From Polyangiaceae bacterium (GTDB lineage Bacteria > Myxococcota_A > Polyangia > Polyangiales > Polyangiaceae), in assembly GCA_033763455.1 (NCBI GenBank), contig JANRKO010000039.1, forward strand, positions 161,499 through 225,498: a DNA stretch of 64,000 nt. The letters run 5' to 3'. A program made the position numbers and the translations under genes. The notes under the pieces were generated by a model that was not told where the DNA came from, did not search any database, and saw only the letters and a program-made list of their open reading frames with translations. Shown in pieces: positions 39,239 to 59,539 of the stretch. Within the stretch, counting starts at the first letter, position 1. Each line of letters begins with the position of its first letter.

Positions 39239-39372
39239 GTGTCACCTCCGTTTACAATCGAGCTCCTAGGTTCGCAGCATAAGAGGGAAGCTTTTGCTTG
39301 CGGCGCCGAAGCGCTCGACCGGTATTCTCAGGAGCAAGTTGGCCAAGACGTTCGTAGACGTGCAACCGCCTT
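39239..39372 (+). pseudogene. Truncated GNAT (TacT/AtaT-type) toxin
   Basis: HKREAFACGAEALDRYSQEQVGQDVRRRATA is a GNAT-toxin N-terminus; similarity stops after ~44 codons and no acetyl-CoA motif follows. Confidence 0.8.
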
Positions 39373-39415
39373 ACTTGGGAAGCTGGTCGAGTTTACCCGA
39401 TTGCAAACGGAAGCG

Positions 39416-41193: not shown

Positions 41194-41532
41194 CTACCGT
41201 GTCTGTTGGTTCCACCCTGCAAGGACGGCTGCAGCTGCTCGTCGGACACCCGCGTGTGCGTCTCCCTTAGCGATCGTCTCGATAACCACTCGAACGTCCT
41301 CAAAGCCCAATTCAGCCAGCCCATAGAGCGCCCCCTCCCGTACGAGAGCGCTCTTGTGCTTCAACAAAGGCACCAACGTCTGCCGCACCAGCGCGACATC
41401 CTCGACTCGTCCAATGGCTTCTGCAGCAAGGGAAAGCTCCGTATCATTTAGAAGCCCTTCGGTAGTGAGCAAGCTCGCGAGGCTCCTCGGCGAACTCGCG
41501 GCTAGCGCAACAAACTGTTCCTCGCAGGTCAT
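41194..41532 (-). CDS. Small HEAT-repeat protein
   Basis: LVPLLKHKSALVREGALYGLAEL, DAHAGVRRAAAAVL; ATG 2 nt after the parE stop. Confidence 0.75.
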   Translation of the reverse strand: MTCEEQFVALAASSPRSLASLLTTEGLLNDTELSLAAEAIGRVEDVALVRQTLVPLLKHKSALVREGALYGLAELGFEDVRVVIETIAKGDAHAGVRRAAAAVLAGWNQQTR

Positions 41533-41534
41533 GG

Positions 41535-41747
41535 TCACCGCGCTCGTCCAATCCAATACAACGGCCGGCGCCGGACGTGCACGACGGCCAAAACGGCCAG
41601 TACCCCGGCAAACGCCTGGTAGGCAAGAGCGTAGGGAAATCGCGGCAACAAGAAACGCCGGATGGGCGGAATGCGGGCTGGAGCTCCATACCAGGTAGCC
41701 GCGTCCTCGAGCTCGGATTCAGCCTCAGCGAGTAGTACGAGCCTCAC
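41535..41747 (-). pseudogene. RelE/ParE-family toxin with in-frame internal deletion
   Basis: EAESELEDAATWY is joined directly to GAPARIPPIRRFLLPRFPY...AVVHVRRRPLYW; the usual ~30-aa second helix is absent (70 aa total). Confidence 0.75.
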
Positions 41748-41976
41748 GACGAGCTTTCAGTCGGTCGGTGATGCGCTTCTCGGCGTCGTCCCAGGTTACC
41801 AGCGTTGCCGTGCCGTTGGCGACCGCTTGCGCCCGACGATCGATCTCCTCGATCCAAGCCTGTTCAGCACCAGGGTCGGGGTCGCCATCAAGGCTGAGCA
41901 AGAGATCCTTGGCAAGCGCGGCGCGCTCGTCGACCGGCAACGCCAGGGCTTCTCGTCGGAGGTGGTCAGCGCTCAT
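41725..41976 (-). CDS. Addiction-module antitoxin (TIGR02574-like)
   Basis: ALALPVDERAALA...LLSLD...AWIEEIDRR...WDD. Confidence 0.88.
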   Translation of the reverse strand: MSADHLRREALALPVDERAALAKDLLLSLDGDPDPGAEQAWIEEIDRRAQAVANGTATLVTWDDAEKRITDRLKARREARTTR

Positions 41977-42024
41977 GAGCCAAGGATAGCACCATTCGGT
42001 GCCCGAGGCCGAGTGTCCCGGTAA

Positions 42025-42154
42025 GATGCCCCCTCTCGTCCGCCCTCCGGCGCGCGGAAGAATGTTGAGTGGCGAACGGCAACTCGCGCGCCTGCGGGCG
42101 GCCGGTCTCGCCCCTTATCCGTGCGAGGTTAGCTCGCACGGATGGGGGAGACGG
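42025..42154. repeat. ~130-bp structured island repeat, copy 1
   Basis: gatgccccctctcgtcc...ggcgcgcggaagaatgttg...cgcgcgcctgcgggcggccggtctcgccccttatccgtgcgag-loop-ctcgcacggatggggg. Confidence 0.95.
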
Positions 42155-42162
42155 TTACGCAC

Positions 42163-42927
42163 TCAACGACCGACTTGAGGCAACTGTATCGCTGGCGCCC
42201 TCGGAATCCGCGCTGACGCAACACGCGGCATTTCGTCCCAGGTTCGATCATCCAACATGCGCCCATTCTTCGATTTCATCACGCCGCCCCATTGCTTGAA
42301 AAAGAAGGGCACTCGTGATGCCAGGCATTGTTCTCGAATATCTCGAACCCACGCCGCATCCATGGGTCGCGCTCCGTGCCCACTCTCGCCGCCCACAATT
42401 ACCCAGTGGATCCCCTCGAGTTTTAGCGTTCCCACGGGCCCAAGCAGTGGCTCGATGCTCAGAAATCGTACTTTCGCTGGCACGCGCCGTAAATGGTCTA
42501 TGCGCGACGTGTACTTGGCATTTTCGACGCTCACGCCGAGCCATACGTTAGGCGTTGGGTGGAGCCGACCGGCGAGTTCAGCCAGGCGCTCAGGACGTTT
42601 GGTCAGCACCTGAAAGCGATGTTGCGGGCAGTCCCGCATTACCGCGAAGACGAGTTCGATGTACTCGGTGGGCACGTCCTCGTGAAAGAGATCTGACATG
42701 CTGTTCACAAACACGAGGCGCCCCCGTCGCCAACGCTTGGGCAGCTCGAGTGCAGAAGGCACTAGCTTGAGATCGAAGCCTTGTTCAAACGGATGACCAG
42801 GAACCCCTCGAAAGCGTTCGGCTAACGTTTCGGCGTAGCAATGCTTGCAGCCGGGTGAGACCTTGGTGCAGCCACGCACTGGGTTCCAAGTGGCGTCGGT
42901 CCATTCGATGGGGCTGCGGTCACTCAT
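42163..42927 (-). CDS. Phage Gp37/Gp68 (DUF5131) family protein
   Basis: IEWTDATWNPVRGCTKVSPGCKHCYAE, FVNSMSDLFH, WVIVGGESG, FFFKQWGG. Confidence 0.92.
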   Translation of the reverse strand: MSDRSPIEWTDATWNPVRGCTKVSPGCKHCYAETLAERFRGVPGHPFEQGFDLKLVPSALELPKRWRRGRLVFVNSMSDLFHEDVPTEYIELVFAVMRDCPQHRFQVLTKRPERLAELAGRLHPTPNVWLGVSVENAKYTSRIDHLRRVPAKVRFLSIEPLLGPVGTLKLEGIHWVIVGGESGHGARPMDAAWVRDIREQCLASRVPFFFKQWGGVMKSKNGRMLDDRTWDEMPRVASARIPRAPAIQLPQVGR

Positions 42928-43074
42928 GGGGGCTCGTTGCTTGCGGCATGTACGGATGCGCAGTATAGCTGAGCTCGGGCGCATGGGTCGGCGAGTGTTC
43001 TTGGAAATTCCAAGTGAGTACGTGGGAAGCGAGCCACGCTATCTGAAGCACCAGCTCGACGTGGAGGCGGAGGC

Positions 43075-44226
43075 ATGACGCGCGTGCACGTCAAGCCGGA
43101 GCTTCTGCGCTGGGCCTGCGAACGGTCGCGGATCGACGAGGTCGTGCTGAGCGTGCGCTTCCCGCACGTCGAGGCGTGGGAGCGAGGACACAAACAGCCG
43201 ACGCTCAAACAGCTCGAGGCGTTCGCCAAGGCCACGCACACGCCGCTTGGCTACTTCTTCCTCCCTGAGCACCCCGTCGAGCGCCTGCCAATTCAGGACT
43301 TCCGCACTGTTCGCAGCAAGGTTGCTCAGCCGAGCGCCGACCTACTCGACACGATCTACGCCATGCAGCGGCGGCAGGACTTTATGAGCGAGGAGCGGCG
43401 CGACGGTGAGGGCGAGCCCCTCGATTTCGTTGGCAGTGCGCGCCTCGCTGATAACCCGGAGGCGGTGGGGCGCGAGATGCGTCGCGTCGTCGGGCTCGAC
43501 GACGGCTGGGCGGCGGAGGTCAAGACCTGGACGGAAGCTGTGGGTGAGCTGCGGCGGCGCGCAGAGAAGCTCGGCGTGATCGCGGTGATCAACGGCGTCG
43601 TGGGGAACAACACGTCCCGCAAGCTCGACGTTGACGAGTTCCGTGGCTTTGCACTGACGGACTCGTACGCCCCGCTCATTTTCGTGAATGGCGCTGATGC
43701 GAAGTCGGCTCAGATGTTCACGTTAGCGCACGAGCTAGCGCACCTTTGGCTCGGACGCGACGGCGAAGGGGTTTCGGGTTTCGAGGGCATCTTCCCGGGT
43801 GGCGAGCGCGTCGAACAGTTCTGCGACCGCGCGGCAGCCGAGTTTCTCGTGGCGGGCGACGAGCTGAAGAAGCAGTGGCCGACGGTGAAACAAGCAGGCG
43901 ACCGGTTCGAGCGGCTCGCGCGTCATTTCAAGGTCAGCCCCATCGTCGCAGCACGGCGTGCAATGGATCTGCGCCTCGTGGGTCGCGATGCGTTCTTCAA
44001 GTTCTACAATGACTACACGCAGCGCGAACGCGATCAGGTGAAGGCCGCGAGCGGTGGTGACTTCTACAACACGCAGAACACCCGCCTCGGCCAGAGCTTC
44101 GCGCTCGCCGTCATGCGGGCCGCCCTCGAGGGGCGGTTGAGCTTCAAAGAGGCGTACGACCTCACCGGTCTGCGCGGCGGCGCGTTTCAGGAGTACGGGC
44201 GTCGACTGGGAGTGCCGCTGCCGTGA
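43075..44226 (+). CDS. HTH + ImmA/IrrE Zn-metallopeptidase
   Basis: WERGHKQPTLKQLEAFA (HTH), DFR, FRGFAL, FTLAHELAHLW. Confidence 0.92.
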   Translation: MTRVHVKPELLRWACERSRIDEVVLSVRFPHVEAWERGHKQPTLKQLEAFAKATHTPLGYFFLPEHPVERLPIQDFRTVRSKVAQPSADLLDTIYAMQRRQDFMSEERRDGEGEPLDFVGSARLADNPEAVGREMRRVVGLDDGWAAEVKTWTEAVGELRRRAEKLGVIAVINGVVGNNTSRKLDVDEFRGFALTDSYAPLIFVNGADAKSAQMFTLAHELAHLWLGRDGEGVSGFEGIFPGGERVEQFCDRAAAEFLVAGDELKKQWPTVKQAGDRFERLARHFKVSPIVAARRAMDLRLVGRDAFFKFYNDYTQRERDQVKAASGGDFYNTQNTRLGQSFALAVMRAALEGRLSFKEAYDLTGLRGGAFQEYGRRLGVPLP

Positions 44227-44348
44227 ACAAAGGCGCCGTCTACATCCTGGACTCCGACGTCTTCATCGCAGCGAAGAACACCTACTACGCCTTCGACATC
44301 TGTCCCGGTTTCTGGGAGTCGATCGTCCAAGCCCACCGCCACGCGTAG
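44223..44348 (+). pseudogene. Truncated DUF4411 (PIN-fold) partner of the ImmA gene
   Basis: Manual translation: MNKGAVYILDSDVFIAAKNTYYAFDICPGFWESIVQAHRHA-stop; GTGA overlap with the ImmA gene. Confidence 0.85.
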
Positions 44349-44472
44349 CGCCTCGCATACTTGCCGACCTCAGCTTTGCTGAAGTCGTACTCTTCGAGGA
44401 GATCCGGATCATTGGTAATGGGCTTGCTCATGTGCGTCGTCGCTCGCTTGGGGTAGCAATTCTAGCGCTCGC
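44341..44472 (-). pseudogene. BrnT 3' remnant plus BrnA-like 5' remnant
   Basis: Minus strand SARIATPSERRR-stop overlaps ATG 44431: MSKPITNDPDLLEEYDFSKAEVGKYARRYA, after which similarity is lost. Confidence 0.65.
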
Positions 44473-44910
44473 TCAGCGAGGCTTCGTCGTGCCTGGCACG
44501 AGTTCGAAGCCGAAAGTCCAGAAATCAGAGTCAAAGGAAAAAATACGAAACATGTCGTAGCGCAACATCACGGCTGCACACAAAGCATCATGGTAGCTCA
44601 AACTCTTGTCGGCATACTTCTGGACGAGTTCAATTGCCTTGTGCTCGTCCTCTTCACCGAATGCGATCGTCCGAACTCTTGACGCGCGGAGCATGCCGAA
44701 CCCCTTCAGAGCGAGATCTAGGGAACCATCATATCGAAGACGTGTGAACGATTCGTGTGCGGTTACATCGACAGCACAGAACAACACATCCGTCTGCATC
44801 TTGGCGAAGCATTCACTCGCAATGCTGTGATAAGCGTCATCCACATCCGCAAGCGCCACGGTCGCAGATGTGTCGATGAGAACGGCATTTGCGTAAGCGA
44901 CCCCAATCAC
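44473..44910 (-). CDS. PIN-domain ribonuclease
   Basis: LIDTSA, AHESF, SYHDAL, FSFDSDF: all four acidic positions present. Confidence 0.88.
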   Translation of the reverse strand: MIGVAYANAVLIDTSATVALADVDDAYHSIASECFAKMQTDVLFCAVDVTAHESFTRLRYDGSLDLALKGFGMLRASRVRTIAFGEEDEHKAIELVQKYADKSLSYHDALCAAVMLRYDMFRIFSFDSDFWTFGFELVPGTTKPR

Positions 44911-45137
44911 TTGAGAGGCGCTAGATTCGGCTCCCCGGAGACCTTATGCCACCCCTCAGCAAGCGCCGGTGGAACCCCTTCAACGACGCGTCGCAGCGCA
45001 CCGTCGATTACACGGTACGTTCCTGGAGGAAGGAACGACTGGGCGTGTGGCGCCGATTCCGGAAGTGACCTTGTAAAGTAGTTCACCGCATGCTCAGCAG
45101 TGGAGAGGGAGAATTGTTCGGAAACAAACTTCGTCAT
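44907..45137 (-). CDS. 76-aa hypothetical protein
   Basis: 4-nt start/stop overlaps with both neighbours. Confidence 0.75.
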   Translation of the reverse strand: MTKFVSEQFSLSTAEHAVNYFTRSLPESAPHAQSFLPPGTYRVIDGALRRVVEGVPPALAEGWHKVSGEPNLAPLK

Positions 45138-46240
45138 TTGTCGAACCCTTGTTGCGCTTTGTTGTGTGCCCAGCCGCGAGACAGTACCTCAACATGGAAC
45201 GACCGGGGAAGCCCTCTAATAAGTGGCATCGGTTGACCTGGCGGAAGCTGGATCTGGACTTCTGGCGGGAGGGCCGAACTTTGTCCTAGCACGGCCTGGG
45301 TCTCGTGCAGGTAGCCCCAAGCAGTAGACTCCAAGACGCCCCCAATAAATCGCACTTTTTTGGACGTCTCATCCCCCATAAACGCCGAGAGGAAGAATGG
45401 ACGCCGAAGCTCGAAGGTATCCTCGTACGAGCGCAAGAGGACATCAAGCGCGCCAGCTAGCTCGTCGGAAGCGAAGTCAACATGCTCGGCCCCAAGGATG
45501 TCTCTTGCTTCGTAGCGGTTAACCATGTGCAGATGAGACCAAAACCGCGTCGTCAGCGCTTCAATGATCTGATCCTCACGCCGATTGGGAATGGGGTGGA
45601 GCAGAAGCAGCTTCTTGGCAAGCTGCTGAATTTGCTGGTGCACGCGGTAGACGTTTCCTAGCGCAAGGGGGTGTACCTCGTGTGCCAATCGCCCAAGATA
45701 AGGACCCACGTTCTGCCGCAGCGCCTCTAGTTCGTTGGCAGGGTCGATCTGGAACTGGTCAAGGATAAAACTGCGAAAGGCTCGTACATCTTCCACGCTA
45801 ATTGCAAGCCTCGAAGTCGACCTTGCGGGATCCAAGGGATTGAACTGATTCCCAGTACTTGGATCAATTGGGCTGAGCTCAGCCATAGCCGTCAGCACAA
45901 TCTTCTTTGCACCTAACGCAAGGAGGCTACCTGCACTGTGGCAACGAAACGGCACGAGCACTTCGAAGTCTGGATCAAACTCACGCACTATGCTGACCAA
46001 CGGCCACACGCCGTTTACATCACCGCCTCGCGTGTAGAGACAGATGTCGATCTTAGATGAGCCGGTTTCCTTCAACACCCGAAATAGTGCAGCTTTTGTG
46101 TCGGCATTAAATGCCGTGTCCAGCCCCAGTGGCACTGCCGGTTCGCTCAATCTGTCGAAGTTGAAGAAACAGATCATCTTTCGTCCAGGCCTGAGCGCCT
46201 CGACCTGCTCGATCAAACCCTTACGTGTCTCGTAGTCCAT
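45134..46240 (-). CDS. ClpP/crotonase-fold serine protease (SDH_sah-like)
   Basis: IDICLYTRGGD, VLVPFRCHSAGSLLALGA, ELSPIDP, FWSHLH. Confidence 0.85.
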   Translation of the reverse strand: MDYETRKGLIEQVEALRPGRKMICFFNFDRLSEPAVPLGLDTAFNADTKAALFRVLKETGSSKIDICLYTRGGDVNGVWPLVSIVREFDPDFEVLVPFRCHSAGSLLALGAKKIVLTAMAELSPIDPSTGNQFNPLDPARSTSRLAISVEDVRAFRSFILDQFQIDPANELEALRQNVGPYLGRLAHEVHPLALGNVYRVHQQIQQLAKKLLLLHPIPNRREDQIIEALTTRFWSHLHMVNRYEARDILGAEHVDFASDELAGALDVLLRSYEDTFELRRPFFLSAFMGDETSKKVRFIGGVLESTAWGYLHETQAVLGQSSALPPEVQIQLPPGQPMPLIRGLPRSFHVEVLSRGWAHNKAQQGFDK

Positions 46241-46383
46241 AGGTCACCTGACGCGTGTTCAACTCGGCTTCTCTCCCGCTCGTGGCCGCAACCAAACGCG
46301 AGCGTAGGATTATGCCGGGCTGCCTCCCATGGCAAGATTTGGTGCGCAATGGGTTTCATCCCCCTGGGTTCTGTGATGCATGC

Positions 46384-46514
46384 GATGCCCCCTCTCGTCC
46401 GGCCTCCGGCGCGCGGAAGAATGTTGGCTCGGGAGCGGTAGCTCGCGCGCCCTGCGGGCGGCCGGTCTCTCCCCTTAGCCGTGCGAGGTTGAATCGCACG
46501 GATGGGGGAAACGG
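46384..46514. repeat. ~130-bp structured island repeat, copy 2
   Basis: Aligns end to end with copy 1; differences fall mostly in the loops. Confidence 0.95.
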
Positions 46515-46571
46515 CTAGAGATCGCCCCTTCGCTACGGCGCCCATTCTGCTAGAATCCACGAGGAGTAACC

Positions 46572-46829
46572 GTGAACGCGATTAAAGTTCAAACGACGGT
46601 AGACGAAGCGACCGCCGCAGCGATCCCCGCGTTTCGGCCCTTGCTTGGGAAGCGAGTCGAGCTTACCGCATCGCAAACGAAAGCAGAGCCCGCCGAACCT
46701 GCAGAGCGGAAGCTGACACTCGACGAGCTGCTTACGCGGCGCATCGACGCACCAGCTGGTGCGCCGCCGCTAACGGACGACGATATTCAGCGAGCAATCG
46801 TCGCGGGCGCGCTCAGCGCAAACCTTTGA
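46572..46829 (+). CDS. Putative antitoxin (VapB-like position)
   Basis: GAGGAG RBS, 85 aa, overlaps a PIN N-terminal remnant. Confidence 0.65.
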   Translation: MNAIKVQTTVDEATAAAIPAFRPLLGKRVELTASQTKAEPAEPAERKLTLDELLTRRIDAPAGAPPLTDDDIQRAIVAGALSANL

Positions 46830-46878
46830 CACGAACGTCGTCCTTCGCGTCGTCTATCGGGACAATCCGGACCAAGCG
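46819..46878 (+). pseudogene. PIN/VapC N-terminal remnant
   Basis: QTFDTNVVLRVVYRDNPDQA, then unrelated sequence. Confidence 0.65.
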
Positions 46879-46902
46879 ATGAGAAAGCAGCCGAAGGCCC
46901 TC

Positions 46903-47259
46903 GGGGAAAGCTCCCGCCCGACGTTATTCAGAAGATCGTACGCGACTCTTACGGCCAATTCCGCCGGTGCTACGAAGCGGGCTTTAGCCCGCAATCCGAA
47001 ATTGCAGGGTCGCATCACCGTAAGGTTCGTAGTCAACCGCGACGGGTGCGTTCCCTCAGCCGTGCTTGCCCACGTTGAAACGCCCACGCCAGCAGAGCCT
47101 GCACAGGAGACCCTAGAATCAGCACCTTCCTCCGAACCTTATCTTCCAGATGCTCAGGTCGTGAAGTGCATTCTCAACGAATACCGGAAACTTGTGTTTC
47201 CCAAACCCGATGGGGAAAGCATCACGGTTGTCTATCCTATTCAATTCGCGCCCGGGTAG
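46903..47259 (+). pseudogene. AgmX/PglI C-terminal-domain fragment, frameshifted
   Basis: GKLPPDVIQKIVRDSYGQFRRCYEAG, frame change near 46983, then LARNPKLQGRITVRFVVNRDG...FPKPDGESITVVYPIQFAPG. Confidence 0.75.
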
Positions 47260-47284
47260 CTGCAGGGCTGCAGGCAATAGCCGC

Positions 47285-47840
47285 TCAGTTCTTGCGTCTC
47301 AATTGCTCAGCGTAGGCTCTCGCTTCAGTAGAGCCCCAAACATCCCGCAAAGCTCCAAAGCTTGAGGCAAAATCCGTGGTGAGGCTTTTCGCGGTCTTGG
47401 AAGGCCTAATGGCTACGGCAGCTACCTCGTTCGACCTGCGCCGTTCCGCAAAGGCGCGCAGGCCAACTTCCAGCTTGGAAAGGTTTACCCATTCGCTCCA
47501 GCCGCAGGGCTCTTGCTTTGCGAATTCGAGCTTACTTCCAGCCTCGTGAGCGATCCGGGCCGCTCCAGCGAAAACATCGGCGCCATTGGCCGAGAACTCG
47601 ACCGATGGGCTCCCCTTGGCAGCCGAGCAAAGCGTCTATCCCAGGCTCGGCTGTGCCGATTGCGAACTCAAGCGCGTCCCGCACCAACTCCTTGGGTTGA
47701 CCCGTGGCATCCGCAATTCGAGGAGCTGCGTGGTGGCACACTTTGTAAAGGCCCTCGATGATCAAGTCGATAACCTGAACGTAAGCTCGCGCCGGAACCC
47801 AGTGTCCGTGGTTTGGAGGGAGGAATCGGAGCGCGTGCAT
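47285..47840 (-). pseudogene. Possible frameshifted hypothetical gene
   Basis: ATG 47840 MHALRFLPP...; a second frame stays open from ~47625 to a stop at 47285; no family recognised. Confidence 0.3.
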
Positions 47841-47934
47841 GGGTCGAGAGATTTTGTAAGGGTAGCTTATTCGAGAGCGAACGGGGGAGTTACTGGCGGA
47901 ATCGCGCGTGAAACCTGAGAGCTGACGGACCTGC

Positions 47935-48063
47935 GATGCCCCCGCTCGTCCGGCCTCCGGCGCGCGGAAGAATGTTGAGTGGCGAACGGCACCTCGCGCA
48001 CCTGCGGGCGGCCGGTCTCGCCCCTTATCCGTGCGAGGTTGGACTCGCTCGGATGGGGGAGAC
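47935..48063. repeat. ~130-bp structured island repeat, copy 3
   Basis: Aligns end to end with copy 1. Confidence 0.95.
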
Positions 48064-48124
48064 TGAGGGAGCGACAAGTCCGAGAACGCAGGCGCCGTAC
48101 GAATACTTGAGGGCACGCGTGCGC

Positions 48125-49075
48125 TCAGTAAGAACGCCTCACCGTTACCTGCGCTAGCGGGTAGTATTTTGAATACGCCGCCAGTGCCGCCTCTGCTGCG
48201 TCGGCCGACCCTTGCCTGCCGGCTACGAAGACCCCGCTCATCCCGTGGCTCGCCAGATTGAGGAGCCCGCCGTTGCCATGCTTAGCAGAGGAATTTTCAA
48301 GTTCAAAGGCGACCACAGGAATCGCTGTTGCTTCTTCCGGCGTGATACCTGGTACTGCCGCCTTCGGCGACATCGTCCCCACCGCCTCGACGAAAGACGC
48401 GAGACCCTTCGGCATTGGGAGAAACCAGACCTGATCGATCTTGCTCTGAGTGGGAGCACGCGAAATTGGGAACAAGCCCCGCGCGTCATCGTGCACAACA
48501 AACCCGGCTCGCTCACCTATCTCCCTTAGGTTTGCCCTCGTGCGGCGCGCCCAATCAGCTTCGCCCCCGCTACCCTTTGGAAGTTGCTGTTTCAACTCAG
48601 TAAGAGCCACTGATAGCTCGATTCGAGCAAGCTCTGGCGCCCAGCGGGCATCGAGAACCATGATCCGAGTCGCTCCAAAGTAGGCTTCCTGAGACTGGTG
48701 CAATCTGAGCCCGCGCTCGTAAAGATTGTCAACGCTTCCGCCTCGGGGAGCGAGCACGCCGAACCAAGCCCCGGAGACTCGTAGGTTCGCCAGATCCGCT
48801 TGCATTCCCTTCGTCGAAGCGTCGGAACCTTCGACTTCGAATGCCATGACGGGCAACGTTTCGCCATAAAGGCGAGGAGTAGCTCCCACCTCGTTGAGAG
48901 CTGCTAGCTGCGACGCCGTCAGCCTCATTGTCCAAAGGATATCAAGGCGAGGCGCGTAGATACGCGCGGGTTGCACGCCTTTCGTGGAAACGACCACCTC
49001 GCGGAGTGCGGAAAAGCCCATTCCCTGGGCCATTTTCAGGAAAAGATCATGAACTTCGTCGGTGGATCCTTTCAC
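48125..49075 (-). CDS. Protein with two tandem PD-(D/E)XK-like (restriction-endonuclease fold) domains
   Basis: Internal duplication: GMGF..RLDILW..PVMAFEVEGS..K..LANL versus RAGF..KIDQVW..PVVAFELENS..K..LLNL. Confidence 0.6.
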   Translation of the reverse strand: MKGSTDEVHDLFLKMAQGMGFSALREVVVSTKGVQPARIYAPRLDILWTMRLTASQLAALNEVGATPRLYGETLPVMAFEVEGSDASTKGMQADLANLRVSGAWFGVLAPRGGSVDNLYERGLRLHQSQEAYFGATRIMVLDARWAPELARIELSVALTELKQQLPKGSGGEADWARRTRANLREIGERAGFVVHDDARGLFPISRAPTQSKIDQVWFLPMPKGLASFVEAVGTMSPKAAVPGITPEEATAIPVVAFELENSSAKHGNGGLLNLASHGMSGVFVAGRQGSADAAEAALAAYSKYYPLAQVTVRRSY

Positions 49076-49083
49076 GTTCAGTT

Positions 49084-50277
49084 CTACCGATCACCATCAA
49101 TGTAAATATCCCGCGTTTTCTTCTCGCCACGCTGAGTTCTTGCGAGCACACTCTCCAATGGGCGGCGAGGTTCGCCGTTCCGGCCATAGTACGCGATTCC
49201 TGAAGCGGCCGAAGTCACGTCAGGGAGATCCTTCATGATGCCTGACCAGCCGAGTGCCCAGATGTTGGCTGAATCGGTTTGGTGGGGGTGCTGGAGCACG
49301 ACTGTCGGTCTGAATTGTCGCGCGAGCTTGCGCATCAAGTCACAACGTTGGCGACGCTCGCCTCCCGGTTTTTGTCGAGAGTGACTCCTGGGGCTCCACA
49401 TGTTGAGATCGTGACAGCCGAGAACGAGGACCCGTTCACCACCTATCTCGAGCAGGTGGCTTCGCACGTCCGCGACGTGGAGCAACGTGTCTTCTTGGTC
49501 CGAAATAGGGTAAGATTTTCCCGTCCAGCGGAGCAGCCTGCCTGTAGACACATCGAAGACAGCGACAAGCTCGGCGTGATGATCGTCTAAACGGCCGTCC
49601 TCACCGAGATCCAAGCCAAGAGTGATAAACTGAACGCGGCCGCGTGCAGTACTCAGCACCCGCGAGGAAACGACCTCCTTTGCGTGTTCAGTTGCTACCC
49701 CCAACACCTTTGCGAGATCCTTCTCCGTGGAGTTCCAGCCCAATTGACCCCGAAAATTCCTCGGGAAAGGCTGCTGCGCAAATCCTCCCGGCGTAAGAAG
49801 GAACTTGGCTCCAAGATTAGCAGGCAATTTCTTCACGGCATCCAAGAGCAGGCGTTCCGCGTTCTTAAGGCTGGCCGGCGGACACCCGTTCACCACGGCG
49901 CGAACAATTACTGGTGCATCGCTCCGCGACGCATCAGGTTTTGATGGCCGTGGCACGGACGCGCGCTTCTGCGTCTGCGGGAGCACGCTGCTTTCTCGCG
50001 CCTGAGATTTTCCTGGTCCCGCGATTTCAAATCCCAGGCGTCGTAACGGCTCATTTGTCTGCGCACCGCCGTAAAACTCTGAGGTGCTAAAGGCCCTGCC
50101 AGTTGCACATTCGACGGCAAGCGAAAGGAGGTACTTCGGTGGATACGTTCTCCCTGCATGGACCACCGAGTACTTGGTCGAGCTATGAGTTTCGGGAAAG
50201 CCTTCTCGCTGGATTCGCTGGATCGCCTCCAGAACATTCTGTCGGGTCACGAGCTGAATTGGGTTTGTTTGCGTCAT
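49084..50277 (-). CDS. McrA/McrB-type N-terminal head domain fused to a divergent carbon-nitrogen hydrolase (nitrilase-like) domain
   Basis: N-terminus VTRQNVLEAI..STKY..GRTYPPKY..FYGG..N..LRRLGFEI; C-terminus FLLTPGGF, TGKSYP, VLVLGCHDL. Confidence 0.6.
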   Translation of the reverse strand: MTQTNPIQLVTRQNVLEAIQRIQREGFPETHSSTKYSVVHAGRTYPPKYLLSLAVECATGRAFSTSEFYGGAQTNEPLRRLGFEIAGPGKSQARESSVLPQTQKRASVPRPSKPDASRSDAPVIVRAVVNGCPPASLKNAERLLLDAVKKLPANLGAKFLLTPGGFAQQPFPRNFRGQLGWNSTEKDLAKVLGVATEHAKEVVSSRVLSTARGRVQFITLGLDLGEDGRLDDHHAELVAVFDVSTGRLLRWTGKSYPISDQEDTLLHVADVRSHLLEIGGERVLVLGCHDLNMWSPRSHSRQKPGGERRQRCDLMRKLARQFRPTVVLQHPHQTDSANIWALGWSGIMKDLPDVTSAASGIAYYGRNGEPRRPLESVLARTQRGEKKTRDIYIDGDR

Positions 50278-51581
50278 AGCTTTCCCTTGTCCTTTTCGGA
50301 CCGTCCCACTTCGCGCAAGAACATCTGAAATTGAACTAGCTGCGCCCTTTGAGCCTCAGATGGAGAGTCTGCGTCGAAGTGCATCAGGTCGTTGCGGGTC
50401 TGCCGGGCAATGTGAAATCGCTTCATGAACTCAGCTCGATCAACGTGAAGGTCCAGACGGCCCCAGTTCTGCGGATTCTCTAACAGCCGCCCTAACTCCC
50501 CCAGGTTGAGATCAGCGACGTTCTTGACTTCCCTCGGATCGTGCTCGAGCTTGAATGCCTCAAGTTCACGCCGAGTGAAGTTGCCGCGCTCTGTGAGCAT
50601 GCGGAGTTGCCTCTCAATTTCTCCGAGAACGATAAACGGGCCCGCATGGTCATGCAGGAACTGCCCAAGAACCGCTCGCGTTATGATGCCCGTAATGAGG
50701 TTTTCCCCATCCTTCACAACGACATATCCCGATGAAACCACCTCAGGAATAATGTCAAAAAAGGAATCGTTGGTGCTTACCGTGGGCGCATTCCGTTGCA
50801 TCACGTCTCTCACTCGAGAATCCAGAGTGCCCTTTTCCAGCGCTAAATACTTCGCAATGTCGGACCAGCGCAGAACTCCATCAAGCGAGCGAGGGTTTCT
50901 GAACACCAGAAGGTGCGAGATCTGACTGGCCATCATCCGCGTCACGGCGACGCGAAGGAGGTCGTCAGGGGCCGCGCTCACAAGATCTTTGATGCGGGCC
51001 TCCGGAAGTGACCCCACTCTGGGCGTTGCATCCCCTGGAGAATCCATCTTTGCGGGAGGCTCTTCGCTTTGCTCCGAGCTACCAGGGGCGGAAGCGGTTT
51101 CCGGTTGGGTATCAGGCGTACGGGGGACCCGCCCCAACGTCACAGCTGCGTCCATGGACACTGCCATGAAGTCCGGTGTCGTTTCGAGATCAAAGCCTGT
51201 GAGGGCGCCACGGATCCTTTCCACCGTCGCCTCTGTTCTGCGCTCAACACCGAACCAGCGAAGGAGTTGACGCACCGCAACCTCAACAGGGGTCCCGTCC
51301 CGATCAATGGCCGCGCTGGCCTCCTTAAGCTTGGCAACGTGGAGCGGCGTATCTGTATCCGCTACGAAATGAAGCTCCTCGTCGACATCAGCATTCTCAA
51401 AGTCAGGCAACGTACGAAGGCCGTGTTTGGCCAGCCTTGATCGCATGTTCTCAACGATATTCGCGCCGCGCCTTCGAGATCCGAATCGTTCCAGGAGGTC
51501 GCGCGCACTCATGCGTTCAGGTTTCCCCTGCCTCACCCTGGCCGCTACCATCTCTAACCAGCTATCAACCGCCCTTGGCAT
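50274..51581 (-). CDS. Duplicated N-terminal domain + CBS pair + HEPN (Swt1-like) protein
   Basis: Two copies of R.LL..FG..RR....V..(M/I)R..L....L.T.PDF; CBS pair (AVTRMMASQISHLLV, GIITRA); HEPN EIERQLR, LGEL and RNDLMH (RxxxxH). Confidence 0.75.
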   Translation of the reverse strand: MPRAVDSWLEMVAARVRQGKPERMSARDLLERFGSRRRGANIVENMRSRLAKHGLRTLPDFENADVDEELHFVADTDTPLHVAKLKEASAAIDRDGTPVEVAVRQLLRWFGVERRTEATVERIRGALTGFDLETTPDFMAVSMDAAVTLGRVPRTPDTQPETASAPGSSEQSEEPPAKMDSPGDATPRVGSLPEARIKDLVSAAPDDLLRVAVTRMMASQISHLLVFRNPRSLDGVLRWSDIAKYLALEKGTLDSRVRDVMQRNAPTVSTNDSFFDIIPEVVSSGYVVVKDGENLITGIITRAVLGQFLHDHAGPFIVLGEIERQLRMLTERGNFTRRELEAFKLEHDPREVKNVADLNLGELGRLLENPQNWGRLDLHVDRAEFMKRFHIARQTRNDLMHFDADSPSEAQRAQLVQFQMFLREVGRSEKDKGKL

Positions 51582-51803
51582 CCTTGATCCGCCTCTCGCC
51601 TGACCGTTCCGATGTTAGCCCGGTCGCAAGTCCCGAATAGTGCTACCGAAACTTGGGGCTAGTCAAGCCGCTAAGAGCCTTCTGCCCGTGGATCTAGCGC
51701 GAGAGCTGATTATCAATTCCCAGGGGGTGGTGAGGTGCGCCGACGATGAGCCGGGCCTAGAGTCGGGGTTGCCGGACTGAAGCGCAGTGGGGCGATGCCA
51801 TTT

Positions 51804-51928
51804 GGTGCCCCCTCTCCTCCGGCCTCCGGCGCGCTGAAAAATGTTGAGCGGGGAACGGCACCTCGCGCGCCTGCGGGCGGCCGGTCTCGCCCCTTTTCCG
51901 TGCGAGTTTGGCTCGGACGGATGGGGGG
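51804..51928. repeat. ~130-bp structured island repeat, copy 4 (most diverged)
   Basis: ggtgccccctctcctccggcctccggcgcgctgaaaaatgttg...cctgcgggcggccggtctcgccccttttccgtgcgagtttggctcggacggatggggg. Confidence 0.92.
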
Positions 51929-52168
51929 GATGATTACCTCAAACTCTAGCGCCCGCCTCGCTGCTAGTGCGGCGGTGTGATCAAACTTTCCTGAGCCGCG
52001 AGGTTTCTTTCGGCCTTAAATCTGACTAGGTGTCGAGCGTCCAAGCGTCCAAGCACGGCGTATCGATGGCCTTTGCCAGAAGTGCAAGGAACCGGAAAGG
52101 GTGCCGGGCGCTTCGCTTCGATTCTACGCCCAACCTGTCGAAGTACCGACCTCAAGGACCTGACGAAG

Positions 52169-52651
52169 CTATCGCCGTTCCAAGAGTGTGGGCCTAGACG
52201 AGCCGCGCTCAACACACCACACGCAGAGCGACTGCGTACCCAGGATGACGAACAGCAGGAAAGATTGCTCATAGCGAGCTTTGCGCGCGACACGACGCCA
52301 GTCATCGATGTCTTGCCGCGAGGGCGACGGATGGGGCTCAGGATGAGAGTGCCACTCTCCGAGATAGATTCGAGTTCCTTGACTATCGATCCACGCTTGA
52401 TGCACACGCGCCTGCGCGCCCGTGCGGCTTCTTAAGAATCGGTATCTACTTCGAAGGTCATTGCTGCATGGCGTTGTTACTTGATCAATGACGACGTCGC
52501 CGGTCGCGAGGATGATCCTCCCGAGCAGCACTCCGCCAGCTTCGAACGCACCTGTATCCAACTGCCGATACCCGAGCAAGGTGTCGACGCTCTCCTCACC
52601 GAAGGCGACGAGACGATCGCCACCAAGCCTAAAGACTTCAGGCGCGCTCAT
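52169..52651 (-). CDS. cap3: CBASS Cap3 JAB/MPN isopeptidase
   Basis: EAGGVLLG, YLGEWHSHPE..PS..D. Confidence 0.92.
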   Translation of the reverse strand: MSAPEVFRLGGDRLVAFGEESVDTLLGYRQLDTGAFEAGGVLLGRIILATGDVVIDQVTTPCSNDLRSRYRFLRSRTGAQARVHQAWIDSQGTRIYLGEWHSHPEPHPSPSRQDIDDWRRVARKARYEQSFLLFVILGTQSLCVWCVERGSSRPTLLERR

Positions 52652-54344
52652 CTTTGCATCCCGGACACCCAGGGCGCGCGAAACGAGTTGTGGATTGTCT
52701 TTCGCCGGGCTTGAAGCCGCTGGCGCGCGCGCTCACCTTGAACCCGCGGCCGAGGAAGTCCTCCAGGTCCTCCATCCAGCTTGTAAGCGTGTTCGAGCTG
52801 TTACCCGCAAGTACTCGAAGAGCGGCGCGTTGCGCCTCGCAAGCAGCGCGAGTCGCGTCCGCCGCGCCGTACGGGGTGAAAGTACCTGCGCAGCCCGCCA
52901 ATGACTTATCGAACACTTGCCGGTCCGCCGCAAAGAGCGCCTCGTTCGTGAACACGTCATCATGGCTTCGACCAAAAAGACAATAGTAGCAACCGTGAGC
53001 CTTTGGAGCTGGAACCTCCAAAACATGGCCACCCAGTCCGTACGCCTCGAGCCACACATGTACTCGCGGCAAGTCCCGGGGCAGCGCCTTCGTCAGGTCG
53101 AGTTCTAGCGTTTCGTCCCCTACGGCGATGATGATTAGGTCTGAGCCAGTGATTGCTTCTGGGGTTCTTTCCAGTACGCTTTCGATGGGCTCCCGGATGG
53201 GTTCGACAATCGCGTGGGGGAAGTGTTCCCCGAGCATGAGCTGCAGCGCTTCGACCTTTGACCTGCCAACGAACCGGATCCCAGCTGCGTGCCGGTGGAC
53301 GTTTGCCTCTTCAAGCAGCTCTGGATCGATCAACCGAACGCGGCCAACCCCAGACGCTAGCAATTGGAATGCACACGCACTACCCACAGCACCGCACCCA
53401 ACAAGAGTAACCGTTTTTTTGGCAAGGTCGGTAGGCAAGCCAACGCGCGCCAATAGAAAGTCCGCGTCCAGTCGCCTAACCGCGAACCCGCGTGCAGGTC
53501 CGTGCCCTTGCAGAACTCTAGCAATCAGCTGCGATGGACGCCTCCGCATCGCGGGAATGGGACGGAGTGGGAACTCGAGGCCGACGACAATACGTGACTC
53601 ACCGGATGTGTCGGGCATAGACAGTAGCACATTCAAACTCTTTGCCTGAGCCTTGACCAAGTAGGAATTGAACACGCTTGCATCAGGTGCACGACATCGA
53701 ATCTTACGGATGAATTCCCCCACGCGCATCGGATCATCGAACTCCGGCGCTGGCAGGGCCTGCTCAAGTCGAACAAAGAGCGCCCGTTCGCAGTGCACTC
53801 CCCTGACGCCGACACGACCAGCCCACTCGCGAAACTGGCGAGGGTCGTCGGCGACGACCGCTTCAAGAGTTCCGAATCGCGCACGCGACTCCAAGGTGCG
53901 CCAAATCACTTCACGGCTTGGGCCTGCAGCGTTGCAGATGCTGCCCACATCCCCTCCCTGGCGCGGCCAATAGGCCTGGAACTCCCGCTGCAGCTCGACG
54001 TCGGCACTATCAGTGAGACCATCAGCGAGTACGCGCTTCGACCGCTCCACCGCGGCTCGGACGATCTCGCCCGGGCGTTCAATGTCGAGTCGTACACCGC
54101 TCGGAGCCAAGCAGATTTTTCCGTCGCGTCCCACATGTGGAACACGACGGGGAAGCGCGTCGCGCGTCACGCGTACGATCGGCAGCGCGGCCGGAAAACG
54201 CTTCGGCAACTCGAGCGTTGCGGGTACTATCGTACCGCCCAGTGGAAAGCTGCCTGTCCAACTCCGCTCGCCCGTGCGCGTAAACCCAAATTCCGCGCAG
54301 GCTTGTGCTGCCTCGTCCAGGGCTTGCGCAACTAGCAGCGTCAC
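52638..54344 (-). CDS. cap2: CBASS Cap2 E2-E1 (ThiF) fusion
   Basis: E2: FP..LP, PHVGRDGKICL; E1: VGCGAVGS, LIDPELL..NVHRH, GCYYC, GCAGTFTPY. Confidence 0.9.
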   Translation of the reverse strand: MTLLVAQALDEAAQACAEFGFTRTGERSWTGSFPLGGTIVPATLELPKRFPAALPIVRVTRDALPRRVPHVGRDGKICLAPSGVRLDIERPGEIVRAAVERSKRVLADGLTDSADVELQREFQAYWPRQGGDVGSICNAAGPSREVIWRTLESRARFGTLEAVVADDPRQFREWAGRVGVRGVHCERALFVRLEQALPAPEFDDPMRVGEFIRKIRCRAPDASVFNSYLVKAQAKSLNVLLSMPDTSGESRIVVGLEFPLRPIPAMRRRPSQLIARVLQGHGPARGFAVRRLDADFLLARVGLPTDLAKKTVTLVGCGAVGSACAFQLLASGVGRVRLIDPELLEEANVHRHAAGIRFVGRSKVEALQLMLGEHFPHAIVEPIREPIESVLERTPEAITGSDLIIIAVGDETLELDLTKALPRDLPRVHVWLEAYGLGGHVLEVPAPKAHGCYYCLFGRSHDDVFTNEALFAADRQVFDKSLAGCAGTFTPYGAADATRAACEAQRAALRVLAGNSSNTLTSWMEDLEDFLGRGFKVSARASGFKPGERQSTTRFARPGCPGCKDERA

Positions 54345-55330
54345 GCAGACGAACTCGACGTGACAATCGCGGGCGCGCGAGTCTTGCTTGCCGTGTCCTT
54401 GGGGTCAGGCACTGTGAAGGTGTCACCCAACTGTCGCTGGATAACGCTGCACGCCTTGACGGGATCGGGCTCGTTCGCGGCCGACGATAAAGCGTCGGCA
54501 AGCAGCGCGAACCGTCGTTTTAGCGCGTTCATTTCGTCATCGCTCAGCTTGGCAAACATATCTTCGAATTCTGGAGTCGGCTTCTTGGCGACGAGGCGTC
54601 CGATCGCATTCGCGGCGGCCGTCGCGACCTGTCGCAACGCTTCAAGATCGTCGGACGTGTGGTGCCAGCTCTTCACCGGCGCGGTGAGAGAATCAATGGT
54701 GAGCAAGGTGTACGCGAGACCTGAAGGCTTTGCGCTGCCGTCAGTCGGCATCCACACGTCGTCCCACCGCTTGAGATATCGAATAACTCGGCGGAGTTGG
54801 TCGATGCCAATGGCGTCCTCAGTGCCTTTGAAGCGATCCTTCGCCTCGCCAACGTACGCCATAAGCTTCTTCACATCTGCGGCAACCCAGCGGTCCTCGT
54901 TGTGAGCCAGGCGTGAATGCTCACGACCATTCTCGTCCGCCCAGGTCGCATAGATCACTAGGTCGAGATGGTAGCCCTTCGCGTAAGAAACGCGGATGCA
55001 CGGCCCCTTGCTCACAACATTAGCGGTATGCGATTTAATCGCGTCCCAAACCCAGCGCCTTACCTCGGCGGCGGTGAACTCGCTCTCGCTAAACCTGAAA
55101 TGCAGTCCGACATCCATATCGTAGACCTGCTCGCCAGTGGGTTTTACACCGGTCTTCATAGCGTACGATCCCTGGAGCTTCGCGTCGAACCCAGGGCGAC
55201 TGTCTTGTTTCAGTTTTTCGCGAATCTTCTCGAGGATGATTTCTCGCTTCTCACGAAGCTCCTGCTCGAGCTCGTAGTCAAACCGGATGTCAGCGTGAAA
55301 CTTTTCAAAGTATCGTTGAATGTCAGCCAT
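54341..55330 (-). CDS. CBASS cGAS/DncV-like nucleotidyltransferase (CD-NTase)
   Basis: LQGSYAMKT, YDMD, HLDLVIY, IRYLKRW; disordered tail ending SSSSA. Confidence 0.92.
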   Translation of the reverse strand: MADIQRYFEKFHADIRFDYELEQELREKREIILEKIREKLKQDSRPGFDAKLQGSYAMKTGVKPTGEQVYDMDVGLHFRFSESEFTAAEVRRWVWDAIKSHTANVVSKGPCIRVSYAKGYHLDLVIYATWADENGREHSRLAHNEDRWVAADVKKLMAYVGEAKDRFKGTEDAIGIDQLRRVIRYLKRWDDVWMPTDGSAKPSGLAYTLLTIDSLTAPVKSWHHTSDDLEALRQVATAAANAIGRLVAKKPTPEFEDMFAKLSDDEMNALKRRFALLADALSSAANEPDPVKACSVIQRQLGDTFTVPDPKDTASKTRAPAIVTSSSSA

Positions 55331-56351
55331 TGTTTACTCCTATCTCGAGAAGCGCGGCCACCTGGCCACGCGTGGAATTGTCCGTGCCTGCCGCTGTTCC
55401 GATTTGCTTCAACGTGGCCGTCGCCGATTGGTTTACGATGTCGAGCCCAAGGCCGGCGCGACCCGGGAGTTCGACGCGAAGGTAATGTTTCCGTCTGTCT
55501 GCGCTGGAGAACAAGCACTGCAGGGCGCAGTGGTGCAGGCCGACGCCGGAGGCGACAAAGAGATCCGAAAGCGGCAGCGCCCACCCGAAAGCACCGCGAC
55601 GCGATCGCCACCCTGTTTTCAGCGCGGACTTGGGGACATTCTCCGTCCTCAGAACACGCGGTGGTGATATCGAGAAAATGCGCAGATTGGTGGGGTCGAC
55701 GTCCAGGTATTCGAGCGCCTCGGTGTAAGCAAGCAGTGCGGGATTATTTGCGCACACACCGCCGTCGACAAACGTCTCAATCGCGCCCGTTGTCGGATTC
55801 TCTAGCGAAACAGTGGGGAAGAAGATAGGCGCGGAAGCTGTCGCCAGCGCGACGTCCCGGACGAAGTAATCGCCATGTGCGGTGAGCTTGGAAGGATGGT
55901 GATCCGTCTTGAAGAGTCGCGGCTTCCCGGTTGTGAGGCAAAGGGCAGGAACAACAACGGCGCGCCCGCGAGAAGAGATGTCTTTCAAACGTAAATCGCG
56001 GAACGCTTCCGCGAGAGCAACCTTGAGTGGCCCGTTACTCCATTTTGCGGTGAAGAGCGAGCGGATGGTCCGCGAGGTTCTCGACAGCCAACCGAGCGGC
56101 TGCGGAAACACTGACGCGCCCAGTTTTTCATACAGCTCAACGACTTCGGCCGCTGTCATGCCGCTCGCGAGCGCAAGGGCAATTATCCCTCCTGTGCTCG
56201 TCCCGCAGAAAAGGTGGAACTGATCGCTGGCCTTGAAACCCAGGTGGCGCTCGAGCTCGGCCAGGAAGGTTGCTGCCCCCAAACCCAGATACCCGCCCCC
56301 GTCAAGGCAGAGCGCTCGGGTAGTGTGGCACTCATGCTGAACGGATAGCAT
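55323..56351 (-). CDS. capV: CBASS patatin-like phospholipase effector
   Basis: LDGGG, GTSTGG, SAPIFF, VDGGVCANNP. Confidence 0.92.
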   Translation of the reverse strand: MLSVQHECHTTRALCLDGGGYLGLGAATFLAELERHLGFKASDQFHLFCGTSTGGIIALALASGMTAAEVVELYEKLGASVFPQPLGWLSRTSRTIRSLFTAKWSNGPLKVALAEAFRDLRLKDISSRGRAVVVPALCLTTGKPRLFKTDHHPSKLTAHGDYFVRDVALATASAPIFFPTVSLENPTTGAIETFVDGGVCANNPALLAYTEALEYLDVDPTNLRIFSISPPRVLRTENVPKSALKTGWRSRRGAFGWALPLSDLFVASGVGLHHCALQCLFSSADRRKHYLRVELPGRAGLGLDIVNQSATATLKQIGTAAGTDNSTRGQVAALLEIGVNNG

Positions 56352-56587
56352 CCGTGTACTATTGCCCCGCCTGAGCGTCCGTCAAGTGATCGCTGAAGAA
56401 TGTTTTGTAAGTGACAGAAATAATTAAGTATTATCCCCAGCCACATTCGTGGACACTTGAGCACGGGTAAACGGACGATCAGCTCGCAGCTGCCAAACTC
56501 TACGCCTGCCCATGAGGGCGTGTCGATCATCGCTGACAGTGCTACTCGTGAACACGAATGCCTGTAGCCCGCTGTTGCTCACACGTT

Positions 56588-58099
56588 TTAAGCACTAGGA
56601 CGCTTGCGGCTTGCTTCTCGCCTCGACTTTAGGGAGCTGGTCGAGCCTCCACTCGGAGCTTGCAGTTGCGCTAATATCTCCTTAGCGGGCTCGTCATTCG
56701 GGTCCTGCGGGACGAGTTCGCCGCGGAAAGCTTTGGCCAGCTGAGCGCGCTCCAGCGTCAGAAGTTGTTCATCCACCGAAGCATGGCTCGCTGCCGCGGA
56801 GGTCACCCTAGCCATCGCCCGCTCGACGCGTTCGACAAGAAGAACCATTTCCTCGTGCGTGGGGACGGGAACCGCAACCTCCCCCAAGACCTCGAGGTTT
56901 ATATTAGCCTGCGCCGTTGCTGGCGCGAACCGTTTGAGGTCCACACGCGCCGTGCGAATAAACAGTTCGACGTAGGACGCGACGATCGGGCCCCCGTCCG
57001 CAACGAACCCCACAACGCTATCGGGGAAACAAGCATCAAAATCAAGGATTCCTGTGTCCGCGATGTTGGCAGCAATCGTGATGCAAACCGTCCCCCGCGG
57101 GAAGATTCGGCTCTGCGCGACGCCAAATGGCGAGTACATGGTTGAGTGGGAGGTAATTCGTCCCTCTGCCCTAGCGACCTCACCTGTCTGAATGAAAGGA
57201 ATGGCGTTGCCGAACAGAGCGGGGTCGTTGCGCGGACGGTGCTTCGACTTGCCCCGCGCGAGTTCTCCCAGCGTTGGAAGCGGCGCCCAACACCACCCCT
57301 CCGGCAGCTCCGGCAACCCCGTTGCATCCACAGGCTCCGGCTCCTTGTACTTCGCCTTCCATTTATCGTCCGTCGGCGCCTTGCCCTTGGCCTTCATTTT
57401 GGCGAGCTCGGATTCTTCCCATTTTCTGCGGCGCTCCGTGCGGATGCGCTTGAGGAGCTCGCTCGCGGGCTCCACGTTCTTGTGCTTCGCGCGCCAATCC
57501 TTCGTGAGGTCGCCGCGAAAGGCTGCGGCGAGAATCGATTGGCGGAGCTTCTCGAGCAGGGGCGGCACGGCGTCGAGTGCCCCGCGCGCGCGACGGCTTC
57601 GGGCTTGGAGGGCTTCGAGCTTGGCGACGATGCGGCGTTGTTCGTTGAGGGGTGGGAGGGCCAACTCGGTAGCCTCAAACTTCGGTTTCGTGACGTGCGC
57701 CAGACCAGCCCCCCCGTGAGCTAGGTCGATTAGCTCGCTAAGCCGGTCGTTGATGGCATAGCGCAGGAACGACTTGTCGAAGAGCTCTTCGTAGTCGAGC
57801 ACCCTGAAGATGTGCTGATTTAGTATCGCTTGTCCGCGCTGCCAGATATGCGCTCCAAATGAGGTCCCCGGCGTTCCTGACCAAGCAAAGAGAAGCTCTC
57901 CATCCTCGACGAGGAACTTTCGTTCAACGACGCCCGCATAGCGGTTGAAGGCCGCCTTATGATTATTGAGGTTTTGGATGCGAATAATCGGCAGCCCTTC
58001 ATCCGTCCAGTCCGTGGGCTTGAAAGCTCGACCGTTAACGAGACGGCATGAACGCCCCACAGATACCTTCGACCATCCCCGTGGTAGCCGCTCGTTCAA
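56588..58099 (-). CDS. hsdS: Type I RM specificity subunit
   Basis: LPRGW, PPLNEQRRIV, LRQSILAAAFRGDL, AFRGELVPQDPNDEPA; two TRDs. Confidence 0.95.
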   Translation of the reverse strand: MNERLPRGWSKVSVGRSCRLVNGRAFKPTDWTDEGLPIIRIQNLNNHKAAFNRYAGVVERKFLVEDGELLFAWSGTPGTSFGAHIWQRGQAILNQHIFRVLDYEELFDKSFLRYAINDRLSELIDLAHGGAGLAHVTKPKFEATELALPPLNEQRRIVAKLEALQARSRRARGALDAVPPLLEKLRQSILAAAFRGDLTKDWRAKHKNVEPASELLKRIRTERRRKWEESELAKMKAKGKAPTDDKWKAKYKEPEPVDATGLPELPEGWCWAPLPTLGELARGKSKHRPRNDPALFGNAIPFIQTGEVARAEGRITSHSTMYSPFGVAQSRIFPRGTVCITIAANIADTGILDFDACFPDSVVGFVADGGPIVASYVELFIRTARVDLKRFAPATAQANINLEVLGEVAVPVPTHEEMVLLVERVERAMARVTSAAASHASVDEQLLTLERAQLAKAFRGELVPQDPNDEPAKEILAQLQAPSGGSTSSLKSRREASRKRPSA

Positions 58100-59520: not shown

Positions 59521-59539
59521 GGGCTACTTCGCGAAACCT

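Follow-up and report, generated by a model that had tools for sequence, protein, structure and literature searches.

The closest described counterparts of the repeat analysed here are the BoxC/PIT/TM(ECO) repeats, class II intrastrand-triplex motifs in which a 5′ pyrimidine tract, a purine tract and a 3′ mirror tract follow one another on the same strand (PMC4666352). In the available portion of that source, the published finder allows loops of 1–6 nt, the loops of the TMECO consensus measure 3–6 and 3 nt, and the repeats are presented without a link to mobile elements. By analogy, the nearest functional counterpart is the Ssn/NTS system, in which, as far as the available part of its description goes, a small nuclease gene goes together with a structured repeat that is dispersed and recognised in the form of single-stranded DNA (PMC11893778). 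Against this background we analysed a 64,000-nt stretch (the window) from the genome of a Polyangiaceae bacterium (G000; 6.56 Mb in 92 contigs; contig JANRKO010000039.1, positions 161,499 to 225,498), in which four direct copies of a repeat with conserved cores of 126–127 bp lie in an island of defence genes. We consider it probable that these copies are the gene-less, non-autonomous ends of a small mobile unit of a DUF559 nuclease, and that they have become module boundaries of the island.

The original prediction, made from the letters of the window, had described four same-orientation, intergenic copies of a double-hairpin element, each followed on the minus strand by the first open reading frame (ORF) of a module, and this was borne out except that copy 3 has no credible ORF after it. 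The copies, with pairwise identities of 108/128 to 120/127 (84–94%), are located as follows (L-numbers denote stretches or loci from relatives):

Copy 1, 42027–42152, minus strand: pyrimidine tract 42144–42152, hairpin B, purine tract 42105–42114 (one mismatch).
Copy 1, remainder, minus strand: hairpin A 42037–42104 and mirror third strand 42027–42036, ending GGGGGCA.
Copy 2, 46386–46512, minus strand: its outer 22–27-nt flank recurs beside a congener copy in L084/L176/L181.
Copy 3, 47937–48063, minus strand: one third-strand mismatch; no credible ORF after it.
Copy 4, 51806–51931, minus strand: next to this right flank, L181 retains hairpin B alone and has a different left neighbour, and L176 has 39 other bases.

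The ends of the element are TGCCCCC and GGGGGAGAC. All four copies are intergenic by hexamer coding score (the sole ORF spanning copy 3 scores −5.8), and, reading along the minus strand, genes begin 49 nt beyond copy 1 (addiction-module antitoxin), 144 nt beyond copy 2 (ClpP-like SDH) and ~220–250 nt beyond copy 4 (DS-11); the ORF after copy 3 had been proposed with low confidence from the outset. The two-hairpin fold fared less evenly. Hairpin B is kept, with two of its seven inner pairs changed on both sides, and the outer stem of hairpin A is kept too, yet without covariation, and folding of the whole copy is strong for copy 1 only (z −4.6/−5.4, vs. −1.4 to −2.2 for copies 2–4). In copies from the congeners (G001–G003; the four genomes of the genus are 94–95% complete) both arms are kept around a variable middle of ~38 nt.

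A triplex design, absent from the original prediction, was found here from the co-variation of stem and third strand. Read along the minus strand, the element consists of a pyrimidine tract, hairpin B, a purine tract, hairpin A, a mirror tract and then CA-N-C, and is thus predicted to be a class II intrastrand-triplex motif of the BoxC/PIT/TM type with both loops enlarged into hairpins. In short relatives, changes in the hairpin-B stem are accompanied by corresponding changes in the left-end tract. When 59 distinct elements were picked without using the four variable triad positions, canonical triads (G.G, A.A or T.A) occupied 211 of 236 cells, compared with a mean of 159 after shuffling, and none of 10000 shuffles scored as high; for the 16 unique stem/third-strand pairs the figures were 46 of 64 and 33.3, with 2 of 10000 shuffles as high. 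Eleven elements carry a non-canonical cell, several of them via a one-base register shift. GNA mini-hairpins are especially stable in single-stranded DNA, and GNA words sit on the triplex strand rather than its complement by 36 vs. 1 in 18 long copies and by 23 vs. 4 in 25 sites of G000, while genome-wide they show no strand bias.

The element shares with the BoxC/PIT/TM(ECO) repeats, as described in the available part of PMC4666352, the tract order on one strand, a G/C-rich stem of 6–15 nt with G.G-C, A.A-T and T.A-T triads, tolerance of a single mismatch (copies 2–4 carry extra ones), a dispersed, intergenic placement beside all kinds of genes, and raised local variability. It departs from them in its loops, which here are hairpins of 16–90 nt rather than 3–6 nt (~30 and 69 nt in copy 1, 16–82 nt across G000) and because of which the published finder would miss the window elements; in relatives, loop sizes form a continuum from the classical 6–10 nt to >100 nt. 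Further differences are the conserved GGGCA-N-C end, the GNA words, direct arrays instead of inverted pairs, and a link to DUF559. Since purine-motif triplexes do not form in RNA (PMC4666352, in part), we interpret the fold as one of DNA.

The DUF559 link comes from a survey of 69 loci, 63 of which had at least 600 bp upstream, with downstream counts made on 60; five of the genomes had been selected for having model matches, which favours a link, and an evenly drawn set added further genera. The motif lies upstream and antisense of DUF559, with the third strand outermost, at 26 of the 63 loci (14 of 26 genomes), compared with upstream-sense placement at 3/63 and the two downstream placements at 3/60 and 3/60. 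A long copy is also found upstream of DUF559 in congener G001. In genome G169, the motif is located ~290–360 bp upstream of DUF559 matches; the outer junction is sharp and falls a few bases beyond TGCCC, whereas the far end varies. A classical two-ended DUF559 cassette with 6–10-nt loops is present at L218, whereas most units are one-ended, a second, inverted motif downstream of the gene being found at 3 of the 60 loci only. Judged by position and sequence, DUF559 units from many genera of the family have this motif as their fixed upstream end. The only solved relative of the DUF559 protein, PDB 3HRL, is endonuclease-like. DUF559 is a candidate nuclease and of a different family from Ssn, a GIY-YIG enzyme shown to cut (PMC11893778, in part), and its repeat is of the triplex type. 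In a literature search conducted partly at title and abstract level, we found no paper joining triplex repeats to DUF559 or to myxobacteria; the flanking-gene supplement of PMC4666352 may bear on the former.

IS91/ISCR and RAYT-REP elements are one-ended movers with a fixed structured end, a variable far end and passenger DNA. The units described here resemble them in all three features, and differ in that no HUH/Y1/Y2 transposase stands beside the element in the annotated loci. A unit of element plus Rpn gene, sharply delimited on its outer side, also turns up in several left contexts. Rpn/YhgA was considered as the main partner and rejected, with the motif upstream at just 3 of 13 Rpn loci, and is treated as a passenger. 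As a separate observation, the upstream regions L241, L242, L244 and L105, of Rpn/YhgA genes and of the broken G000 DUF559, share a similar structured leader, as if Rpn had replaced DUF559 in one kind of unit. In G169, group II intron-like 3′ ends and an element resembling an insertion sequence (IS), both as assessed by eye, are inserted in the motif or leader of DUF559 units (L107, L126, L129, L109, L113).

The original prediction had also proposed that the repeat is a recombination or capture site delimiting modules, and a role as module boundary and recombination site is supported by the 3.1-kb indel at its outer end, a mosaic copy, the switch of neighbours at copy 4 and the arrays in congeners. 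In comparisons with 13 metagenome stretches, L173/L180/L183 differ from L164/L174 by a 3.1-kb block of three ORFs, none named by PADLOC, whose junction lies 3 nt outside TGCCCCC without duplication. Over 8.1 kb, L176 and L181 share 99.8% identity, and they diverge at the site homologous to copy 4, where the window carries the full element. In L182, L185 and L170, ~200 bp are missing from the hairpin-B tip onward relative to L101/L179, and a contig of run X2 keeps the flanks of copy 1, its 10 differences all being confined to the first 60 nt of the repeat. The congener copy L002a, beside DUF5131, agrees in its outer part with copy 2 (5 of 6 informative columns) and in its inner part with copy 1 (8 of 9), and its flanks follow the same division; it looks like the product of a crossover inside the repeat between copies 2 and 1, and may alternatively represent the ancestral state. 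From these alignments, strain differences are seen to begin at or inside the element. Orthologous empty sites in the congeners are mostly ~70% identical and thus too distant for base-level junctions.

Arrays were also found behind ribH. In L176/L181/L165, four full copies and one half copy stand in direct order behind this gene; three of the elements are followed, ~33 nt on, by a ribH 3′ fragment starting at gene position 298–301 and 92–94% identical to the intact gene, and G003 carries one further ribH 3′ fragment after an element. The array shares HEAT, DUF5131 and copy-4-flank sequences with the window, in a different order. At L083 (224–2885), three 182-bp triplex elements lie between orphan RHS (C-terminal) pieces, and after two of these elements comes a portion of the main gene. 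Each array is probably descended from one junction, so the number of independent events is small. Viewed by itself, the ribH locus has cassettes stacked behind the ribH 3′ end in L181/L176/L165/L166, each headed by a duplicated ribH 3′ fragment, with a protein-coding gene serving as the integration anchor.

For the DUF559-unit reading we propose the following route. Once unwound, during replication or when DNA is taken up in single-stranded form, the minus strand would adopt a purine-motif triple helix whose loops each contain a hairpin. The DUF559 nuclease, acting in trans or formerly encoded by the unit, would place a nick slightly beyond the third strand, by a few bases, and so produce a fixed recombinogenic end. 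Neighbouring DNA on the side of hairpin B would then move together with the element, to settle by a second element or behind the head of a homologous gene. Where several 84–94% identical copies stand in a row, homologous recombination would delete, swap and convert modules with no dedicated enzyme.

A bolder version, which we put forward tentatively and regard as unlikely in its full form, is an integrase-free cassette system: DUF559 would read the triplex in single-stranded DNA, cut outside it and free cargo ending in a piece of a host gene (ribH, RHS), which would re-enter by homology and stack triplex-closed defence and toxin-antitoxin cassettes, as an integron analogue built on non-B DNA. 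The likeness to attC arrays lies in direct repeats of a single-strand-folded site between defence or toxin-antitoxin cargo. In contrast to integrons, there are no core sites or bulged single hairpin and no linked integrase, the modules comprise several genes, and homologous heads occur at ribH and RHS.

Several observations weigh against the DUF559-unit reading. A strict upstream motif is absent at 37 of the 63 DUF559 loci, and an intact stand-alone DUF559 was not found in G000–G003, at their 94–95% completeness: G000 has one copy with an internal stop and one fragment, in G001 the gene is split across frames, in G002 it is embedded in a longer ORF, and G003 lacks the gene. The window itself holds no DUF559. 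Because elements are shared among kin, the counts are not independent. As to the triplex, the window subtype has a purine-tract mismatch and the strict scan caught just one of the four copies, and PMC4666352 (in part) saw no stable triplex in vivo by dimethyl sulphate (DMS) footprinting. As to the boundaries, the 3.1-kb indel may be read as an insertion or as an adjacent deletion, and no duplicated gene heads follow the window copies. The contigs of three runs (X1–X3), which drop rare forms and cannot show them, contain no joint at a repeat and no excised circles or deletions there; their best-supported deletion, a 5.4-kb skip from 41322 to 46720 seen in X1 and X2 that removes copies 1 and 2, ends away from the repeats. 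L176 has also lost DS-11 ~200 nt from copy 4, so that turnover is not all at the repeat.

The alternative that survives best is an ordinary selfish repeat, similar to a repetitive extragenic palindrome (REP) or miniature inverted-repeat transposable element (MITE), with single insertions, a harmless pile-up in the island, passive shuffling by homologous recombination or replication stalling, and no capture function. It is supported by the distribution of the family. Full copies of the long subtype in G000 are just the four in the window (blastn and nhmmer, all 92 contigs), the original prediction having noticed none of the repeat outside the island, and the island matches the rest of G000 only via the repeat and a 140-bp contig-end repeat. 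A structure-based descriptor scan of G000, however, returned 25 sites, copy 1 and 24 elsewhere, one of them probably due to chance (the reversed genome gave 0 and two shuffles gave 1 each). Tabulated as the prediction had suggested, the neighbours of 29 annotated sites (pooled from several scans; 7 of 33 matches of one scan were dropped as chance by eye or overlap) include dnaK, ddl, metG, rpiA/mutM, rplI/dnaB, rbfA, mutL, murJ, asd, yebC and a XerD-like gene, with a PIN, Fic, Imm26 or Uma2 neighbour at 4/29. Because its shorter members are scattered genome-wide beside housekeeping genes, the repeat family is not specific to the island; the long subtype in G000 is. Such scattering, which the original prediction had named as evidence against itself, therefore holds for the wider family and not for the long subtype in this genome. 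Insertion directly after stop codons is not enriched among 63 cases (19 within 0–3 nt vs. 15 at 6–9 nt).

In relatives, a DNA search of 60 genomes matched all three congeners and gave four weak matches elsewhere, and pattern matches to the element fall in Polyangiales/Polyangiaceae. A covariance model, a check the prediction had named, was trained on 18 copies. In the three congeners it gave 23 matches of at least 70 bits, spread over 22 contigs and including many of the sequences used for training. Run with strict filters on 150 genomes of the order, 23 of the same family and 127 of others, it returned shorter matches in 7 of the 23 family genomes and none in the 127. The neighbours of long congener copies are often PIN/Phd, ParE, RelE or Rpn genes; some of these copies are flanked by core genes on both sides.

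The selfish-repeat explanation also agrees with the lack of an intact DUF559 in the genus and with the raised variability around E. coli TM sites, for which the available part of PMC4666352 gives no known mechanism. Against it stand the common direction of all copies within each array, the sharp outer end of the element-plus-Rpn unit in several left contexts, and ribH fragments that begin at one fixed position after the element, and we hold it to be a serious but considerably less probable reading than that of DUF559-unit ends. A classical IS or MITE was rejected, as the ends form a mirror pair and not an inverted pair, and no target duplication is present at the L173/L174 junction or at the window copies.

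The original prediction had considered, among other readings, a capture site akin to attC though not matching it, and had suggested looking for a linked tyrosine, serine or HUH recombinase; such a site is not supported. An attachment site folded and recombined by an IntI/Xer-type enzyme would explain the cassette-like direct-repeat arrays and the duplicated ribH 3′ ends, which resemble att sites, and G000 does encode an integron integrase (TIGR02249, above cut-off, on contig C15) and 11 other PF00589 matches. The element, however, lacks the RYYYAAC/GTTRRRY ends, no recombinase gene is consistently linked (one XerD-like neighbour in 29 sites), and the gene linked in relatives is DUF559. The true attC sites of this genome, on C15, are single hairpins of a different design, and we regard such a site as very improbable. 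Identity with an integron attC was rejected, the R″ RYYYAAC and R′ GTTRRRY sequences being absent and the attC scan having found the C15 array and no window copy. That array (G000:C15:7157–13428) comprises the integrase and at least eight canonical attC sites of 83–90 bp. A structured non-coding RNA, which the prediction had also raised, or a terminator or leader, co-transcribed with the modules, is slightly less probable still: hairpin B covaries and copies often lie near gene 3′ ends, but Rfam gave no match at gathering score, placement includes divergent gene pairs, and the co-varying triads are of the purine motif, which cannot form in RNA (PMC4666352, in part).

The island comprises AbiE, an addiction-module antitoxin, DUF5131, IrrE, PIN, a ClpP-like protein, DS-11, CBASS and type I restriction-modification genes. 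Around the repeats, these and other features are arranged as follows:

41194–41976, minus strand, beyond copy 1: addiction-module antitoxin at 41725–41976 (PF09720).
41535–41747, minus strand, beyond copy 1: short toxin-like ORF (candidate).
Within 41194–41976, minus strand, beyond copy 1: HEAT-repeat ORF, 89% to L176/L181.
42163–46240, module between copies 1 and 2: DUF5131 (minus, stop 11 nt from copy 1), IrrE/HTH (plus), PIN (minus), ClpP-like SDH (minus).
46572–47259, plus strand, between copies 2 and 3: 85-aa ORF and AgmX/PglI C-terminal fragment, which look like remnants.
48125–51581, minus strand, module between copies 3 and 4: DS-11 CBS anti-phage protein (NF053863, above cut-off).
48125–50277, minus strand, between copies 3 and 4: 397-aa ORF (ScoMcrA-N / nitrilase-fold lead only) and 316-aa ORF without a named family, co-oriented with DS-11.
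52169–63286, minus strand, upstream of copy 4 on that strand: CBASS (patatin, cyclase, E1-E2, JAB) and type I restriction-modification.

Directly before DS-11, at 51552–51619, lies a weak attC-like palindrome, possibly an integron-cassette remnant, and the junction of the DS-11 loss in L176 falls inside it (50183 joined to 51602); as an attC site it was rejected, since its fold is weak (−5.6 kcal/mol) and the attC scan did not select it. A 46-bp repeat is present in two copies (39369–39414 and 46639–46684) in toxin-antitoxin remnants. The last 140 bp of the window (63860–64000) are identical to stretches on contigs C12, C26 and C61 and probably represent an IS end that broke the assembly. Elsewhere in the window are an Rfam match to 5_ureB_sRNA (4470–4752) and a 78-bp tandem pair with 97% identity (8407–8591).

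The triplex motif class itself is already known, and BoxC/PIT repeats have been without a known partner or mechanism since the 1990s, as far as the available part of PMC4666352 shows. What is added here is the hairpin-looped form, the one-ended units and strain-level junctions in cassette arrays. The case supplies a natural series of covariation for a DNA triple helix whose loops are as large as hairpins, a candidate nuclease whose distance and orientation are fixed, and pairs of strains for which the junctions are exact. With these in combination, both the site of cutting and the part played in defence-island turnover can be tested directly. If the proposal is true, some defence islands would be expanding along a path to which finders of integrons and transposons are blind.

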